From a virus (lineage: Duplodnaviria > Heunggongvirae > Uroviricota > Caudoviricetes): DNA of 9,863 bases. This document shows, piece by piece, positions 1 to 6,735 of this stretch (its first letter is position 1; each line of letters opens with the position of its first letter). Both the position numbers and the translations under genes were made by a program. Location: positions 1 through 9,863 of the IMG/VR virus record IMGVR_UViG_3300018488_000069. The stretch is one strand, 5' to 3'. The notes under the pieces were generated by a model, which saw nothing but the letters and a program-made list of their open reading frames with translations, had not been told where the DNA came from and made no database searches.

Positions 1-218
1 ACGCTGTGCGGATGCGCCGTATGGTCGCCGTATTCCCGCATTAACAGAGAGGGCAGCTCGAGAGGGAGCCTCCTCTGCGCCAGTGAGTGGGGATAAGCAA
101 AAACGATACACACGGGGGATTACCGCGATAACGGAGCGCGGAGGTGTCCCCTCATGGCCGCTGGTCCGGTGCGATGGTGGAAGAAACCGGAACCAAATGC
201 AACTGATAGCCATCATCA

Positions 219-458
219 TTTTGCGGGTCCTCCTGGTAGGGTAGGCCTGTCCACGAGGCGGGTCGGCGCGGAAAAAAGCGCATTTTTGTGATTTTATCGT
301 CATCATCATCATGTGTGTAAGCTGTTGTTTTTAATGTAATTGATGAAAAAAAGATGATGGTTGTGGCCAATTTTTGTTCGACATCTTTGTGTGGCGGCAT
401 TTCTTTACAAAAAAAACAGAATCACTTCTGTTCAGAGGGGTATGTGGAGGAGGCGTAG
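219..458 (+). other. cos: Putative cos packaging site: cosQ-like GGGTCCT (225-231), GC-rich cosN-like core (~253-271), AT-rich cosB-like segment (~280-420) immediately upstream of the small terminase gene
   Basis: Seen: TTTTGCGGGTCCTCC at 219-233 and ACGAGGCGGGTCGGCGCGG at 253-271, followed by ~140 bp of AT-rich DNA with A/T runs and repeated TTGTGGC-like motifs (361-367, 398-404), ending ~190 bp before the Nu1-like start. From memory this resembles the lambda cosQ ...ACGGGTCCT... and cosN ...ACG/GGGCGGCGACCTCGCGGG... arrangement, with similar spacing to Nu1. Exact nick positions cannot be determined from sequence. Confidence 0.4.
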
Positions 459-935
459 ATGGACGGCGAGCTGAAAAATATGAAGTTAAATATTAATCAA
501 CTGGCAGCCCTTTCAGGCCTGCACCGGCAGACCGTTACCGCAAGAATGGCGGATGTTCCTCTTGCTCCGGGCAGTAATGAGAAGAAGAAACTTTATCTAC
601 TGACGGACCTGATTACTGCGCTGCTGGCAAAAACACCATCCACCGAAGATGAGGAGATGAATCCACACGATCGCAAGGCATGGTATCAGTCCGAGCGCGA
701 GCGTCTTAAATTTCAGCATGAAACTGTTCAGCTTGTGCCCGTCAGTGATGTCAGACGGTCGTTTTCTGTCGTGGTGAAAGCGATAGTTCAGATACTGGAA
801 ACCTGGCCTGACCGGCTGGAAAGGGACAGGGGGTGGACTGCATCACAACTGAATGAAGTGCAGATCGTTGTTGATGAGATCCGCGACACGCTGGAAAAGG
901 CAGTGATTGCCTGCTGTGATGAGGCTGATATGTGA
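459..935 (+). CDS. nu1: Terminase small subunit (lambda Nu1-like, DNA-binding)
   Basis: 158-aa ORF directly upstream of, and overlapping, the large terminase gene. GGAGGAGG Shine-Dalgarno at 444-451, 7 nt before ATG 459. N-terminal segment (NINQLAALSGLHRQTV) resembles the helix-turn-helix of Nu1-type small terminases. Start could alternatively be ATG 480. Confidence 0.8.
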   Translation: MDGELKNMKLNINQLAALSGLHRQTVTARMADVPLAPGSNEKKKLYLLTDLITALLAKTPSTEDEEMNPHDRKAWYQSERERLKFQHETVQLVPVSDVRRSFSVVVKAIVQILETWPDRLERDRGWTASQLNEVQIVVDEIRDTLEKAVIACCDEADM

Positions 936-3055
936 ATCCGGTTAACGAGTGCCATACCCGCGCATCCGATATCTGGCGGGAAGTGGCCTCGCTGTTTCGC
1001 CCACCTGGCCGTTTACCTGTGGCAGATGCCATCCGGCGTTACATGCGGGTGCCACGGGGAGCCAATACCTCCGGTCCGTGGGAGTCATCACTGACGCCCT
1101 ACATGATTGACCCCATTAATACATTATCAGCCCGTGAATATGATGCAGTGGTGTTTGTCGGACCTGCGCGAACGGGCAAAACCGAGGGGCTGATTGACGG
1201 CTGGATTGTGTACGGCATCATCTGTGATCCGGCTGACATGCTGGTGGTGCAGATGACCGAGACGAAGGCGCGTGAGCATTCCAGGACGCGTCTTTCCAGA
1301 ACGTTTCGCCACAGTCCGGAGGTCAGTAAGCGCCTCAGCCCTTCCCGCAATGACAACAACGTCCACGATAAAATGTTTCTTGACGGCTCCTTCCTGAAGA
1401 TTGGCTGGCCGTCGATCACCGTATTTTCCTCTTCGGATTACCGTCGTGTGGCGCTGACGGATTATGACCGTTTCCCTGAAAACGTGGACGGGGAAGGAGA
1501 TGCCTTCACCCTGGCATCAAAGCGTACCACCACCTTTATGTCCTCCGGGATGACCCTGGTCGAGAGTTCACCGGGGCGGGATATCACTGACACCAAATGG
1601 CGCTGTGGCGGCGCACATGAGGCACCGCCAACAACGGGGATCCTGTCACTGTATAACCGGGGAGACCGCCGCCGGTGGTACTGGCCGTGTCCGCACTGCG
1701 GGGAATATTTTCAGCCGGTGATGGATAACATGACCGGATACCGGAATAACCCGGATTTTGTGGCTGCCGGTCAGGCTGCCCGTCTGATGTGTCCGCACTG
1801 TCGCGGACTGATTGCCCCTGAGCAGAAACGTGAACTGAATAACCAGGGGATCTGGCTTCGTGAAGGTGAACGGGCGGCGGCGGACGGCAGTATCACCGGA
1901 ACGCCACGAAACTCCAGGATTGCGTCGTTCTGGATGGAAGGTCCGGCTGCCGCGTTTCAGACCTGGGAACAACTGATTTTTAAGCTGCTGGCGGCAGAGG
2001 AAGAGTATGAGCGAACCGGCAGTGAAGAAACGCTGAAAGCGGTGGTGAACACCGATATCGGACGGCCCTATCTGCCCCGTTCAGCCACGGAACAGCGTAA
2101 AAGTGAGCTGCTTGAACAGCGTGCGGAGCCGGTTCCCCGTCGGTGTGTGCCGGATGGCGTGCGCTTCATTGAGGCAACGGTTGACGTACAGGGCGGTAAA
2201 AACCGCCGGTTTGTGGTGCAGATCACAGGATACGGAGAGCAGGGAGAACGCTGGATTGTTGATCGCTACAACCTCCGGCATTCACTTCGCTGTGGTCTCG
2301 GCGGTGAAAGTCTGCCTGTCGATCCGGCAGCGTATCCGGAAGACTGGGACTTATTGCTGACGGATGTGTTCCATAAAACCTGGCCGCTGGCGTCTGATCC
2401 GGATGTGCATATGCGTCTTATGGCCATGGCCGTGGATACGGGCGGTGAGGCCGGGGTGACGGATAACGCCTATCGTTTCTGGCGGCAGTGCCGCCGCGAA
2501 GGGCTGGGTAACCGGGTGTTTCTGTTCAAGGGCGATGGCCTGCGTCGCGACAGACTGATTAACCGTACTTTCCCGGATAACACCGGCAGAAGTGCCCGCC
2601 GTGCCAGGGCCAGCGGTGATGTTGCCCTGTGGCTGGTGCAGACCGATGCGTTTAAGGACCGGGTGAATAATGCCCTGTGGCGTGACACGCCGGGACCGAA
2701 TTATATCCACTTTCCCGACTGGCTGGGGCGCTGGTTTTTCGATGAGCTGACCTATGAGGAGCGCGGCAGTGACGGAAAATGGCGAAAACCGGGCAGGGGC
2801 GCTAACGAAGCGTTTGACCTGCTGGTCTACGCGGATGCGCTTGCCGTTCTGCATGGTTACGAAAAAATCCGCTGGCCGTCTGCACCTGACTGGGCACAAC
2901 GGGAAACGTGGCTTGTCGTTCCGGAGGAGCGTTCAGGGCTGACAACATCACGGGCGCTGCCGGAAAGGAAAGAAAAACGCCGTCACCGGAAGGAAAAACT
3001 GCGCACAGAGCGTGCAGAGGATAATCCGTGGATAACATCAGGAGGCTGGTTGTGA
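932..3055 (+). CDS. A: Terminase large subunit (lambda gpA family; ATPase/endonuclease)
   Basis: 707-aa ORF with a GTG start inside the Nu1 stop (ATGTGA overlap). Walker A P-loop GPARTGKT encoded at 1160-1183. Paired CPHC cysteine motifs (C-P-H-C at 1688-1699 and 1790-1801), as in gpA-type terminases. N-terminus (..SLFRP..) aligns by eye with the lambda gpA N-terminus. Confidence 0.9.
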   Translation: MNPVNECHTRASDIWREVASLFRPPGRLPVADAIRRYMRVPRGANTSGPWESSLTPYMIDPINTLSAREYDAVVFVGPARTGKTEGLIDGWIVYGIICDPADMLVVQMTETKAREHSRTRLSRTFRHSPEVSKRLSPSRNDNNVHDKMFLDGSFLKIGWPSITVFSSSDYRRVALTDYDRFPENVDGEGDAFTLASKRTTTFMSSGMTLVESSPGRDITDTKWRCGGAHEAPPTTGILSLYNRGDRRRWYWPCPHCGEYFQPVMDNMTGYRNNPDFVAAGQAARLMCPHCRGLIAPEQKRELNNQGIWLREGERAAADGSITGTPRNSRIASFWMEGPAAAFQTWEQLIFKLLAAEEEYERTGSEETLKAVVNTDIGRPYLPRSATEQRKSELLEQRAEPVPRRCVPDGVRFIEATVDVQGGKNRRFVVQITGYGEQGERWIVDRYNLRHSLRCGLGGESLPVDPAAYPEDWDLLLTDVFHKTWPLASDPDVHMRLMAMAVDTGGEAGVTDNAYRFWRQCRREGLGNRVFLFKGDGLRRDRLINRTFPDNTGRSARRARASGDVALWLVQTDAFKDRVNNALWRDTPGPNYIHFPDWLGRWFFDELTYEERGSDGKWRKPGRGANEAFDLLVYADALAVLHGYEKIRWPSAPDWAQRETWLVVPEERSGLTTSRALPERKEKRRHRKEKLRTERAEDNPWITSGGWL

Positions 3056-3264
3056 GTATTGAGGATGTCAGGAACATGATACAGCGGTACCGCGATGCGG
3101 AAATGGCGGTACTGGAAGGAAAATCCGTCACGTTTAACGGGCAGCAGCTGACGCTGGAAAGTCTGTCCCAGATCCGCGCCGGTCGGCAGGAGTGGGAGCG
3201 AAGACTTACGGCGATGGCGAACCGCAGACGGGGGAGTCCGGGGTTTAAACTGGCGAGGTTATGA
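3052..3264 (+). CDS. W: Head completion / head-tail connector protein (lambda gpW-like)
   Basis: Small ORF between terminase and portal with C-terminal ..RRRGSPGF.. resembling the lambda gpW C-terminus. The ORF track opens at ATG 3028 (78 aa), but AGGAGG at 3040-3045 sits 6 nt before GTG 3052, giving a 70-aa product overlapping the gpA stop (GTGA). Start uncertain among 3028, 3052 and 3076. Confidence 0.75.
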   Translation: MSIEDVRNMIQRYRDAEMAVLEGKSVTFNGQQLTLESLSQIRAGRQEWERRLTAMANRRRGSPGFKLARL

Positions 3265-4766
3265 TGGCGATTAGTGATGATGTGATTGGTTTTTTCTCGC
3301 CCGGCTGGAAAGCGGCGCGGTTACGCTCAAGGGCATTAATTATGGCCTATGAGGCCGTGAAACCCACCCGCACACACAAAGCCAGGCGGGAAAACCGTTC
3401 TGCCGATCAGCTCAGTAAATACGGTGCGGTTTCCCTGCGCGAGCAGGCCCGTTTTCTGGATATCAATCATGACCTGGTGATTGGTGTGTTTGACAAGCTG
3501 GAAGAGCGGGTGATTGGTGCCAGGGGAATTATTGTGGAGCCTCAGCCATTACGAAAAAACGGGGAAATGGCGGCAGAGCTGGCTGCGGATATCCGCCGGT
3601 TGTGGGCTGAATGGTCCGTGAGTCCGGATGTGACAGGGCAGTATACCCGTCCCGTGCTTGAACGTTTACTGCTGCGGACCTGGCTGCGGGATGGTGAAGT
3701 GTTTGCGCAGATGGTCAGTGGTGCGGGAAACGGTCTGGAACGGACGGCGGGAGTGCCATTCTGGCTTGAGGCGATGGAGCCGGATTTTGTGCCCATGCGC
3801 AGTGATGAGTCTGCCGGACTGAATCAGGGGGTTTTTCTTGATGAGTGGGGAAGACCGAAAAAATATCTGGTTTATAAAAATTATCCGGTCAGCGGCCGGC
3901 AGAGTGATACGAAAGAAATCGCTGCCGGAAAAATGATCCACCTGAAGTTCACTCGTCGTCTGCATCAGACGCGAGGCTCATCCATGTTATCAGGGGTGCT
4001 GATGCGGATCAGTGCCCTTAAGGAGTATGAGGATGCGGAACTGACTGCGGCGCGTATTGCTGCGGCACTGGGACTGTATATCCGTAAAGGTGACGGGCAG
4101 GACTATGAAGATCCGGGGATCAAAGAAACCGAGCGGGAAGTCCGTATCACCCCGGGTATTATTTATGACGATTTGCGCAAGGGCGAGGATATCGGCATGG
4201 TCAAATCTGACCGTCCCAATCCCAACCTTGAAACTTTCCGCAACGGCCAGTTGCGTGCAGTGGCAGCTGGCAGTCGTCTGAGTTTTTCCAGTGCGGCGCG
4301 TAACTATAACGGCACCTACAGCGCCCAGAGGCAGGAGCTGGTCGAGTCCACGGATGGTTACCTGATCCTGCAGGACTGTTTTATTGGCGCGGTAACCCGC
4401 CCGGTGTACCGGACATGGCTGAATATGGTGGTTGCGGCAGGTCTGCTGAAAATTCCGGCGGATGTGGAGATGAAAACGCTATATAACGCGACGTATTCCG
4501 GTCCGGTGATGCCGTGGATCGACCCGGTTAAGGAAGCTGAAGCCTGGAGAATTCAGATCCGGGGTGGTGCAGCGACAGAATCTGACTGGGTGCGTGCCGG
4601 CGGGCGCAATCCGGATGAGGTCAAACGTCGCCGCAAGGCTGAAATTGATGAAAACAGCAGACTGGGGCTGGTCTTTGATACTGACCCCGTCAACGACAAA
4701 GGAGGCAACAGTGCCGGAACTGAACAACAGCGTCAGCAGGCCACCGAAAGCCAGCATGAAGAATAA
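3261..4766 (+). CDS. B: Portal protein (gpB-equivalent)
   Basis: 501-aa ORF in the canonical portal position (after W, before protease/capsid). ATG overlaps the W stop (ATGA). Size fits portal proteins. Assignment is by synteny and size, not by a recognised motif. Confidence 0.8.
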   Translation: MMAISDDVIGFFSPGWKAARLRSRALIMAYEAVKPTRTHKARRENRSADQLSKYGAVSLREQARFLDINHDLVIGVFDKLEERVIGARGIIVEPQPLRKNGEMAAELAADIRRLWAEWSVSPDVTGQYTRPVLERLLLRTWLRDGEVFAQMVSGAGNGLERTAGVPFWLEAMEPDFVPMRSDESAGLNQGVFLDEWGRPKKYLVYKNYPVSGRQSDTKEIAAGKMIHLKFTRRLHQTRGSSMLSGVLMRISALKEYEDAELTAARIAAALGLYIRKGDGQDYEDPGIKETEREVRITPGIIYDDLRKGEDIGMVKSDRPNPNLETFRNGQLRAVAAGSRLSFSSAARNYNGTYSAQRQELVESTDGYLILQDCFIGAVTRPVYRTWLNMVVAAGLLKIPADVEMKTLYNATYSGPVMPWIDPVKEAEAWRIQIRGGAATESDWVRAGGRNPDEVKRRRKAEIDENSRLGLVFDTDPVNDKGGNSAGTEQQRQQATESQHEE

Positions 4767-6735
4767 ATCCTGGTTCAGGATGCAGGCGGGTGGTCAGGGT
4801 GAGGCGGATATTTATATTTATGACGAGATTGGTTTCTGGGGCGTCACCGCGAAGCAGTTTGTCAGCGATATGAATGCCCTGGGTGATATCACCCACATTA
4901 ATCTCCACATCAACTCACCGGGTGGCGATGTTTTTGAAGGCATCGCCATTTTTAATGCCCTGAAAAATCACGGTGCGGCCATTACCGTGTATGTGGATGG
5001 CGTTGCCGCCTCGATGGCATCCCTGATTGCGATGGCCGGTGACACGGTCATTATGCCGGAAAATGCCTTCATGATGATCCATAAACCCTGGGGGATCAGC
5101 GGTGGTGATGCGGAGAAAATGCGCACTTATGCCGAACGTCTGGACAAACTTGAGTCGGTTATGGTGCCGGTATATGCGCAGAAAACCGGAAAAACTACCG
5201 ATGAAATTGCCGCCATGCTGGCGGATGAGACCTGGATGTCCGGTGCCGAGTGTCTGGCACACGGATTTGCAGACCAGGTGACGCCAGCCGTTAAGGCAAT
5301 GGCATGTATTCAGTCAAAACGTACAGAGGAATTTAAAAAGATGCCGGAATCCATCCGAAATATGATCACGCAGCCACACAACTGTGCCCCGCATGATACC
5401 ACAGTGACAATCCCTGCACCGGCGGTAACAGAACCATCACCGGTACCGGCAGTGGCTGATGAAGCGAACATTCGTGCCCGGGGTATGGCAGAACAGAAAG
5501 CCCGCATGTCAGGCATTAACGATCTGTTTGCCATGTTCGGCGGTCGCTATCAGACGCTTCAGGCACAGTGCGTGGCTGATCCTGACTGTTCGCTGGAAAT
5601 GGCCCGTGAACGTCTGCTGAATGAAATGGGCAAGGAGTCCTCGCCGACCAACAAAAACACACCGGCCCATATTTATGCCGGAAACGGCAATTTTGTGGGG
5701 GACGGGATCCGCCAGGCGATGCTGGCCCGTGCCGGATTTGAAAATGTCGAGAAGGATAACGCCTATAACGGGATGACCCTGCGCGAATGGGCTCGCATGT
5801 CACTGACGGAGCGCGGTATTGGGGTGGCCAGTTATAACCCCATGCAGATGGTCGGGCTGGCGCTGACGCACAGCACTTCTGATTTTGGTAATATTCTGCT
5901 GGATGTGTCGAACAAGGGGCTGATCCAGGGCTGGGAGGAATCAGAAGAAACCTTCCAGAAGTGGACCCGTAAGGGCCGCCTGTCAGACTTCAAAACAGCA
6001 TATCGCGTGGGCATGGGCGGTTTTGGTTCGCTGCGTCAGGTTCGTGAGGGGGCGGAGTATAAATACATCACCACCTCAGATCGCAAGGAGACCATTGCAC
6101 TGGCCACCTACGGGGAGATTTTCTCCATCACCCGCCAGGCCATTATCAATGATGACCTGAATATGCTGGTGGACGTGCCGATGAAGATGGGGCGTGCGGC
6201 GAAGGCAACGATTGGTGACCTGGTCTACAAGGTGCTGACGGATAACCCGAAACTGTCAGACGGTAAGGCGCTGTTCCATGCCGATCACAAAAATATTGCC
6301 ACCGGCGGGATCTCCGTTTCCGGACTGGATGCGGCCCGTCAGATGATGCGCCTGCAGAAAGAAGGCGATCGTGCCCTGAATATCCGCCCGGCCTTCATGC
6401 TGGTCCCTGTGGCACTGGAGACGGTGGCGAACCAGACCATCAAATCGGCCAGTGTGAAAGGGGCGGATGCAAACGCCGGTGTCATTAACCCCATCCAGAA
6501 CTTTGCTGAGGTGATTGCAGAAGCGCGTCTTGATGCGGCAGATCCGAAAACCTGGTATCTGGCGGCGGCACAGGGCACCGACACCATTGAAGTGGCCTGG
6601 CTGGATGGGGTGGACACGCCATACATTGACCAGCAGGAAGGTTTCACCACTGACGGCATTGCCACAAAAATCCGTATTGATGCCGGTGTGGCACCGCTTG
6701 ACTGGCGCGGACTGGTGCGTTCGTCGGTGGCCTGA
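4711..6735 (+). CDS. Fused head maturation protease (ClpP-like, S14) - linker/scaffold - major capsid protein ('tripartite' capsid gene)
   Basis: Single long ORF. N-terminal ~190 aa carry ClpP-like catalytic motifs: Ser in GVAASMASL (codon 5011-5013), His in MMIHKPWG (codon 5080-5082), Asp in HGFADQV. A Pro/Ala-rich linker and helical segment (~5400-5640) is followed by ~360 aa of capsid-like sequence. Three in-frame start candidates: GTG 4711 (AAGGAGG at 4698-4704, 6-nt spacer), ATG 4756, ATG 4780; the ORF track's 4564 start is not supported. Overlaps the portal 3' end. Confidence 0.85.
   Translation: MPELNNSVSRPPKASMKNKSWFRMQAGGQGEADIYIYDEIGFWGVTAKQFVSDMNALGDITHINLHINSPGGDVFEGIAIFNALKNHGAAITVYVDGVAASMASLIAMAGDTVIMPENAFMMIHKPWGISGGDAEKMRTYAERLDKLESVMVPVYAQKTGKTTDEIAAMLADETWMSGAECLAHGFADQVTPAVKAMACIQSKRTEEFKKMPESIRNMITQPHNCAPHDTTVTIPAPAVTEPSPVPAVADEANIRARGMAEQKARMSGINDLFAMFGGRYQTLQAQCVADPDCSLEMARERLLNEMGKESSPTNKNTPAHIYAGNGNFVGDGIRQAMLARAGFENVEKDNAYNGMTLREWARMSLTERGIGVASYNPMQMVGLALTHSTSDFGNILLDVSNKGLIQGWEESEETFQKWTRKGRLSDFKTAYRVGMGGFGSLRQVREGAEYKYITTSDRKETIALATYGEIFSITRQAIINDDLNMLVDVPMKMGRAAKATIGDLVYKVLTDNPKLSDGKALFHADHKNIATGGISVSGLDAARQMMRLQKEGDRALNIRPAFMLVPVALETVANQTIKSASVKGADANAGVINPIQNFAEVIAEARLDAADPKTWYLAAAQGTDTIEVAWLDGVDTPYIDQQEGFTTDGIATKIRIDAGVAPLDWRGLVRSSVA

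Follow-up and report, generated by a model that had tools for sequence, protein, structure and literature searches.

A probable lambda-like cohesive-end (cos) site upstream of the terminase genes of an Escherichia coli prophage

The segment at approximately 205-390 of the window, the whole stretch of 9,863 nucleotides analysed in this study, is very probably (probability about 0.85) the cohesive-end (cos) site of a lambda-like prophage. The elements occur in the order cosQ, cosN, I2 and cosB and are followed by the terminase genes. The host of this lambda-like prophage is E. coli. A cos site is an ordinary and expected feature at this place, ahead of the terminase genes; the length polymorphism of cosN and the variant at the first position of the overhang are the sole additions of this site to the textbook lambda arrangement. 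An earlier note on this DNA had proposed a cosQ/cosN/cosB site upstream of the terminase genes, and the proposal is supported by the alignment with lambda, by the Stx1a-converting phage Stx1_9793, by the cut point of the phage cdtI record and by approximately 140 relatives.

The sequence architecture, the homology together with its conservation and the protein families were all seen directly. The window reads ...GCGGGTCCT-24 nt-ACG|AGGCGGGTCGGCGCGGAAAAAAGCGCATTTTTGTG, and the lambda junction reads ...ACGGGTCCT-23 nt-ACG|GGGCGGCGACCT|CGCGGGTTTTCGCTATTTATG. Alignment with the lambda cos region, which the earlier note had recommended as a check, revealed 66 identical columns among the 109 aligned columns over lambda positions -61 to +45. 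The ordered combination of GGGTCCT, 24 nt, ACG, RGGCGG and CGCGG followed by an A-run exceeds chance expectation and was found at the homologous position in lambda, mEp213, cdtI, mEp460, Fels-1 and VT1-Sakai. One IMG/VR set of 79 loci yielded 66 distinct upstream sequences with the same combination, and pattern scans of metagenomes and IMG/VR added some 75 distinct sequences more; the two sets have some contigs in common. GGGTCCT was found once in the window against 1.1 occurrences expected by chance; as the lone motif is at chance level, the case for a cos site rests on context and comparison and not on the motif by itself. Exact and degenerate scans of the GTDB species representatives gave no match for this cosQ-cosN allele.

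Intergenic position and cosQ

Positions 1-458 of the window form a noncoding gap between the lysis gene Rz, which ends at approximately position 3, and the small terminase gene, and this is the place where lambdoid phages keep cos. In relatives, PGAP placed no annotation between Rz and the terminase genes. It is very improbable that the segment has nothing to do with packaging and belongs instead to a small upstream gene (ORF 83-244) or to a promoter or regulatory region of the terminase operon. This ORF (53 aa, GTG start) is the only sizeable one across cosQ, which it overlaps; in mEp213, a small hypothetical CDS has been annotated over the homologous cosQ, and AT-rich DNA ahead of a gene may serve as a promoter. 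However, ORF 83-244 gave no Pfam or PHROG match, carries no PGAP annotation, shows no codon-position bias in its variable columns (32/32/29) and meets a stop at codon 24 in most relatives, and it was rejected as a gene. With Rz ending where it does and this ORF not coding-like, positions 219-271 do not lie within an upstream gene; according to the earlier note, such a location would have counted against a cos site. Analysis of positions 1-600 gave no family match in Rfam, and promoter and terminator scans of the same positions gave nothing above chance; the sole promoter-like match, on the opposite strand, scored no higher than shuffled sequence.

The approximately 225 bp from Rz to cosQ (window 7-231) are noncoding yet strongly conserved, and they are common to phages with entirely different packaging modules. 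Among 5426 complete E. coli genomes, 1005 gave a hit to positions 1-1000, in many cases over part of the query only.

The heptamer GGGTCCT at 225-231 (plus strand) is identical to lambda cosQ; of the 66 distinct close relatives in the IMG/VR set, 65 could be parsed, and each of these has it. In lambda, cosQ signals the nicking that terminates packaging (PMC4669245), and the element at 225-231 would by analogy have the same role. Comparison with Stx1_9793 revealed that this phage has window 7-231 in common and that the canonical lambda cosN, cosB and Nu1 follow right after GGGTCCT, which makes window 225-231 the positional homologue of lambda cosQ. The homology with the Stx1a phages stops exactly at the end of cosQ, which thus marks a mosaic boundary and behaves as a site of recombination between modules.

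To the left of cosQ, a conserved block at 205-224 (plus strand, TGATAGCCATCATCATTTTGC) resembles lambda GATAATCATTATCACTTTAC in a side-by-side listing of 13 cos regions. This block of about 20 bp adjoining cosQ (GATAGCCATCATCATTTTGC) is similar in lambda (48452-48471), mEp213, cdtI and Fels-1, so conservation reaches beyond the 7 bp that define cosQ. To the right, the spacer between cosQ and the predicted nick (232-255, plus strand) is 24 nt long and ends in the conserved CCACG. Nearly all relatives likewise have 24 nt here, ending in CACG; the corresponding spacer measures 23 nt in lambda, and cdtI and mEp213 have 22 nt.

Variation of cosQ in nature was also observed, with AGGTACT in Fels-1 (locus L093, 998-1004) and in locus L168, GGGGCCT in L102 and GGGTTCT in L150. 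In L102, L150 and L168 a terminator-like hairpin (GCCGGAG..ATCCGGCTTTTTT) is located directly upstream of cosQ and replaces the module found in the window.

The cosN-like core and the predicted cohesive end

The sequence at 253-271 is ACGAGGCGGGTCGGCGCGG; as the earlier note had claimed, this core and the GGGTCCT at 225-231 resemble lambda cosN and cosQ, the match to cosQ being exact. The putative cosN element itself occupies 254-270, with no strand assigned, and can be written CG|AGGCGGGTCGG(C)(G)|CG, where the bars mark predicted nicks. Its core aligns with lambda ACG|GGGCGGCGACCT|CGCGGG. The ACG left flank and the GGCGG core are both present, position 1 of the overhang is A and 11 nt separate ACG from CGCGG. 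The top-strand (left) nick is most likely at G255|A256, as judged from homology with lambda and with the cdtI record, and the bottom-strand nick would follow position 266, 267 or 268, a rightward stagger of 11-13 nt. The prediction is thus a 5' cohesive end of 11 to 13 nt, 5'-AGGCGGGTCGG(C)(G). The idea that the virion left end coincides with the start of the window does not hold up on this placement, which would put the left end at approximately 256.

The record of phage cdtI, which has a DUF1441 small terminase and a gpA-type large terminase, is cut exactly at ...CCACG / GGGCGGGAGCGT-CGCGGAAAAAGG (ACG|GGGC), followed by CGCGG. For LLS and mEp213, Feiss and Smith described a putative cos with a lambda-like 12-nt 5' end, GGGCGGCGCGCT (PMC12315714), and this sequence aligns column for column with the window. 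Lambda-type cos sites have already been inferred in this lineage, in the literature and in sequence records, for cdtI, mEp213/LLS and relatives of Gifsy-1 and Fels-1. Measured virion DNA ends for this phage or its close relatives were not found in the literature searched. The PhageTerm result for the Stx phage Lys8385Vzw was discarded as evidence; that phage has an unrelated HK97-type 3' cos and only window 15-191 in common. None of the 80 IMG/VR loci and 98 pattern hits includes a contig ending at the predicted nick. One human gut metagenome contig (OWZI01000003; locus L097, 1-64) has the Nextera adapter TCGTCGGCAGCGTCAGATGTGTATAAGAGACAG joined to CCTGAACACGGGGCGGG; the junction, 10 nt to the left of the predicted nick, is an assembly artefact and not a genome end.

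Comparison of the distance from ACG to CGCGG revealed 12 nt in lambda, cdtI and Fels-1, whereas among the relatives of the window 10 nt is the commonest length, with 11 (as in the window), 12 or 7 nt elsewhere. Across loci L010-L192 the right half of cosN, homologous to window 256-270, varies in length at fixed distances to cosQ and cosB. The differences amount to 1-5 nt between closely related prophages whose cosQ, I2 and cosB are nearly identical. It is quite possible, although not the outcome we would expect, that this is a working site with a cohesive end of other than 12 nt, the nicks being set by the ACG and CGCGG flanks to give 11 nt, or 13 nt with the second CG taken as the flank. Such an end would be a refinement of the main cos explanation, with a length that differs among closely related prophages. 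The variable ACG-to-CGCGG distance (7, 10, 11 or 12 nt) argues for it, as it occurs while the distances from cosQ to ACG (24 nt) and from CGCGG to the IHF-like site (50-51 nt) stay fixed. The two-fold symmetry points in the same direction: in the window, no pair of eight is symmetric at a 12-nt stagger, against five of eight at 13 nt, where CG flanks are found on both sides, and three of seven at 11 nt; lambda cosN has five of eight at its 12-nt stagger.

A measured precedent is offered by cyanophage Cr-LKS3, for which a 9-nt 5' cohesive end, GGGCTCGCG, flanked by CG...CG, was determined experimentally (PMC9303873). This phage is lambda-like, with a 5' overhang starting GGGC and CG flanks, and its small terminase matches that of the window; it differs from the window in that its ends were measured, at 9 nt, and in its distant host and genome. 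As the Cr-LKS3 end shows, phages of this terminase lineage can have overhangs of a length other than 12 nt. Against an end of other than 12 nt, a symmetric pair of large-terminase protomers is believed to determine the stagger in lambda, small changes in spacing being tolerated (PMC9026076), so near-identical terminases are expected to keep one stagger. Furthermore, cdtI, LLS and mEp213 are treated as having 12-nt ends (PMC12315714 for LLS and mEp213).

Consistent with the suggestion in the earlier note that the cohesive end would be unlike that of lambda, the predicted overhang carries A at position 1 and GTCGG(C) in its right half. Position 1 is G in the lambda-like phages and in nearly all relatives; among approximately 140 distinct cos sequences, A was found only in the window, L055 (two contigs), L090 and L168. 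The A-allele segment is accompanied by three flanking modules, namely the cosB of the window, the cosB and small terminase (75% identity) of L055 and L090, and another upstream module in L168. Occurrence with three different modules argues for an allele that is tolerated and against a private lesion, and this distribution fits exchange of the allele by recombination.

The same features bear on whether the site still works. We consider it unlikely that this is a decayed cos of a defective prophage, in which the G-to-A change at position 1 and the 1-nt change in cosN length block efficient nicking and infectious particles are formed only with a helper. Few sequences have A at position 1, and Feiss and colleagues report selection on the left half of cosN (PMC4669245). 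Defects are common among E. coli prophages of this type, as exemplified by a 93.7%-identical relative (L008) with an internal stop in its large terminase gene. Decay is, however, difficult to reconcile with the three modules carrying the A-allele segment and with the packaging and head ORFs of the window, which are all intact; moreover, nicking in lambda is guided mainly by anchoring at cosB and not by the cosN sequence (PMC9026076).

Within the preferred reading as a working cos site, we propose only tentatively that the ACG and CGCGG flanks set both nicks, giving cohesive ends of differing length (here 11 or 13 nt), and that A at position 1 is a functional variant. If true, these prophages would offer a natural allelic series for asking whether the stagger of terminase is set by enzyme geometry or by the distances to cosB and cosQ. 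No phage paper turned up in a literature search for the predicted cohesive-end sequences, among them AGGCGGGTCGGC and GGGCGGGCGGCG, and no published description or measurement of this cosN allele was found in that search, which did not cover the survey of natural cosN variation by Vahanian et al. (2017). The literature searched on DUF1441 contained nothing on cos.

The I2-like and cosB-like segments and the terminase proteins

An AT-rich tract after cosN had been described in the earlier note, and this description is accurate: G+C is 0.30-0.37 over 271-420, against 0.5-0.68 on the flanks, and (CAT)4 is located at 301-312. Between cosN and cosB, an I2-like spacer occupies 267-297 (plus strand, CGCGGAAAAAAGCGCATTTTTGTGATTTTAT). 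The I2 pattern, consisting of CGCGG, five bases, GC.. and a T-run, is found in lambda, mEp213, cdtI, Fels-1 and all close relatives, and CGCGG-A6-GCGCATTTTTG of the window aligns with CGCGGGTTTTCGCTATTTATG of lambda and with all relatives. The distance from CGCGG to the IHF-like site, given above, is constant in the relatives.

The candidate for R3, the putative primary binding site of the small terminase, is located at 298-313 (plus strand, CGTCATCATCATCATG), bp 43-58 from the nick; lambda R3 is at bp 50-65 (PMC9026076). This candidate contains the (CAT)4 tract, which is probably R3 itself, and sequences like TCGTCATCAYCA occur at the R3 position in mEp460, L054, mEp213 and Fels-1. It is followed by an IHF-like site, the I1 candidate, at 318-330 (minus strand), which reads TAAGCTGTTGTTT on the top strand, has one mismatch from YAANNNNTTGATW and is succeeded by an A/T-rich run. 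Scanning for the IHF consensus with at most one mismatch between bp 31 and 142 from the nick revealed exactly one match per site in nine cos sites of the DUF1441 type, with a uniform orientation and a position invariably within bp 59-76; the match is perfect in L058, L054, cdtI and mEp460. The same scan recovered the known I1 of lambda at bp 79-91. Across the whole window, IHF-type matches with one mismatch are no commoner than expected by chance.

The R2 candidate, at 351-359 (minus strand), is an inverted copy of the R3 core with reverse complement CATCATCTT. The match between R3 and inverted R2 is eight of nine positions in the window (shuffle p=0.12, not significant by itself) and nine of nine in L010, VT1-Sakai and Fels-1 (p=0.002-0.012). 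The R3/R2 pair of lambda, used as the positive control, gave p=0.06 in the same shuffle test, indicating that the test has low power and that the signal in the window is comparable to that of the control. A tentative R1 candidate at 377-385 (plus strand, TTCGACATC) is a direct and weaker copy of the R element, matching at seven of nine positions in the window (p=0.6) and eight of nine in Fels-1 (p=0.07); the homologous sequence in L058, L054 and mEp460 is TTGTTCATCAC. The TTGTGGC-like motifs to which the earlier note had drawn attention are present, at 361-367 and as a looser copy near 388-394, but they were rejected as R sites; the second copy is not conserved, its counterpart being TTATATGGC in relatives with a 94%-identical small terminase.

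The small terminase subunit (158 aa; 459-935, plus strand) starts with an ATG at 459, and the large terminase subunit (707 aa; 932-3055, plus strand) follows. The earlier note had named the first of these genes Nu1; its position agrees, but the protein belongs to the DUF1441/phrog_141 family and appears from its sequence to be only remotely related to lambda Nu1. It contains an N-terminal helix-turn-helix-like segment and matched Pfam DUF1441 (1.2e-48) and phrog_141, annotated as small terminase (9e-65). A Pfam search reported DUF1441 alone and no match to the Nu1 family, even at an E-value limit of 10. Reciprocal weak matches were found between the small terminase and the Nu1 family phrog_57 (4.4e-11) and between lambda Nu1 and phrog_141 (6e-8). 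Alignment with hhalign placed residues 9-60 of the small terminase on residues 2-55 of Nu1, the DNA-binding domain, with E=0.002 and a probability of only 13%. A sequence search against solved structures gave no meaningful match for the small terminase. Recognition of cosB by this protein may follow a Nu1-like mode.

The large terminase belongs to the gpA family and contains the ATPase and endonuclease domains (Pfam GpA_ATPase 3.6e-81; GpA_nuclease 8.4e-84); it is 24% identical to lambda gpA over the full length (E=3e-17). It is followed by a head-tail adaptor, a portal of the lambda family and a ClpP-protease/major-capsid fusion, and none of the terminase, portal and protease-capsid ORFs is truncated. 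We take the fused prohead protease and major capsid arrangement to be that of Gifsy-2-type heads. The protease-capsid fusion ORF at 4564-6735, counted from its first GTG, overlaps the portal gene (3261-4766) by approximately 200 nt, and the true start of the fusion is probably further downstream.

Packaging in lambda (PMC4669245, PMC9026076) serves as the model from which we infer binding, bending, nick positions and overhang length at this site. The DUF1441-type small terminase would bind the CATCATC-type R elements, namely R3 at 298-313 and the inverted R2 at 351-359, and a bend introduced by host IHF at 318-330 would bring R3 and R2 together. The bound complex would anchor the gpA-type large terminase on cosN, leading to staggered nicks at G255|A256 on the top strand and 11-13 nt rightward on the bottom strand, and to a virion left end with a 5' overhang starting AGGCGGGTCGG. 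The complex would stay on the cosB-bearing end and packaging would proceed rightwards from approximately 256, with the terminase genes entering first. At the next cos on the concatemer, cosQ, cosN and I2 would trigger the terminating cut, and window 1-255 would form the right end of the virion chromosome.

Relatives and packaging specificity

The likeness to lambda comprises the identical 7-bp cosQ, the same order of elements, the ACG left flank, the GGCGG core, the CGCGG right flank, an IHF-like site with a candidate direct repeat on one side and a candidate inverted repeat on the other, and a large terminase of the gpA family downstream. Spacings are similar, with 24 nt in the window and 23 nt in lambda from cosQ to the nick, and 203 and 190 nt, respectively, from the nick to the ATG of the small terminase. 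The window differs from lambda in its predicted overhang (A as the first base, a right half with GTCGG(C)), in having 11 instead of 12 nt between the conserved flanks, in candidate R elements of the CATCATC type and not the CGTTTCC type, in an IHF-like site approximately 16 bp closer to the nick, in a small terminase that is DUF1441 and not Pfam Nu1, and in a large terminase with the low identity to gpA reported above.

The nearest matches among complete E. coli genomes are prophages with 93.6-93.9% identity. VT1-Sakai (Sp15) and Stx2a-converting phages are 83-89% identical to the window across 1-1000; together with Fels-1, cdtI, mEp460 and mEp213/LLS they have the same terminase families and cos architecture as the window. 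Fels-1 shows the same arrangement of candidate CATCATC R3, inverted R2 and R1. What sets the window apart from these lambdoid phages with DUF1441 terminases is the rare A at overhang position 1, together with the GTCGG variant. The cosBs of cdtI, mEp460 and mEp213 are diverged and probably confer different packaging specificities.

With this site, the likely physical ends of the prophage genome and the direction in which it is packaged are fixed, which is useful for annotation and for orienting the genome. It also helps to predict which relatives could package each other's DNA, as this is decided by cosB and by the specificity of the small terminase. Shiga toxin genes are found in relatives that have this packaging module, and an AB5 subtilase-type toxin in one of them, so packaging specificity bears on the mobilisation of toxin genes.

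In E. coli 2012C-4221 (L091, 1201-1267), a copy of cosQ-cosN is located right after the ClpP-protease/capsid fusion gene, near yejO and with no terminase genes, and looks like a rearranged prophage remnant. In E. coli 06-00048 (L008, 1-863), whose prophage is 93.7% identical across window 12-1000, genes for a scabin-related ADP-ribosyltransferase and for the binding subunit of a subtilase-family AB5 toxin were found just upstream of the lysis genes, the slot where Stx phages carry stx.
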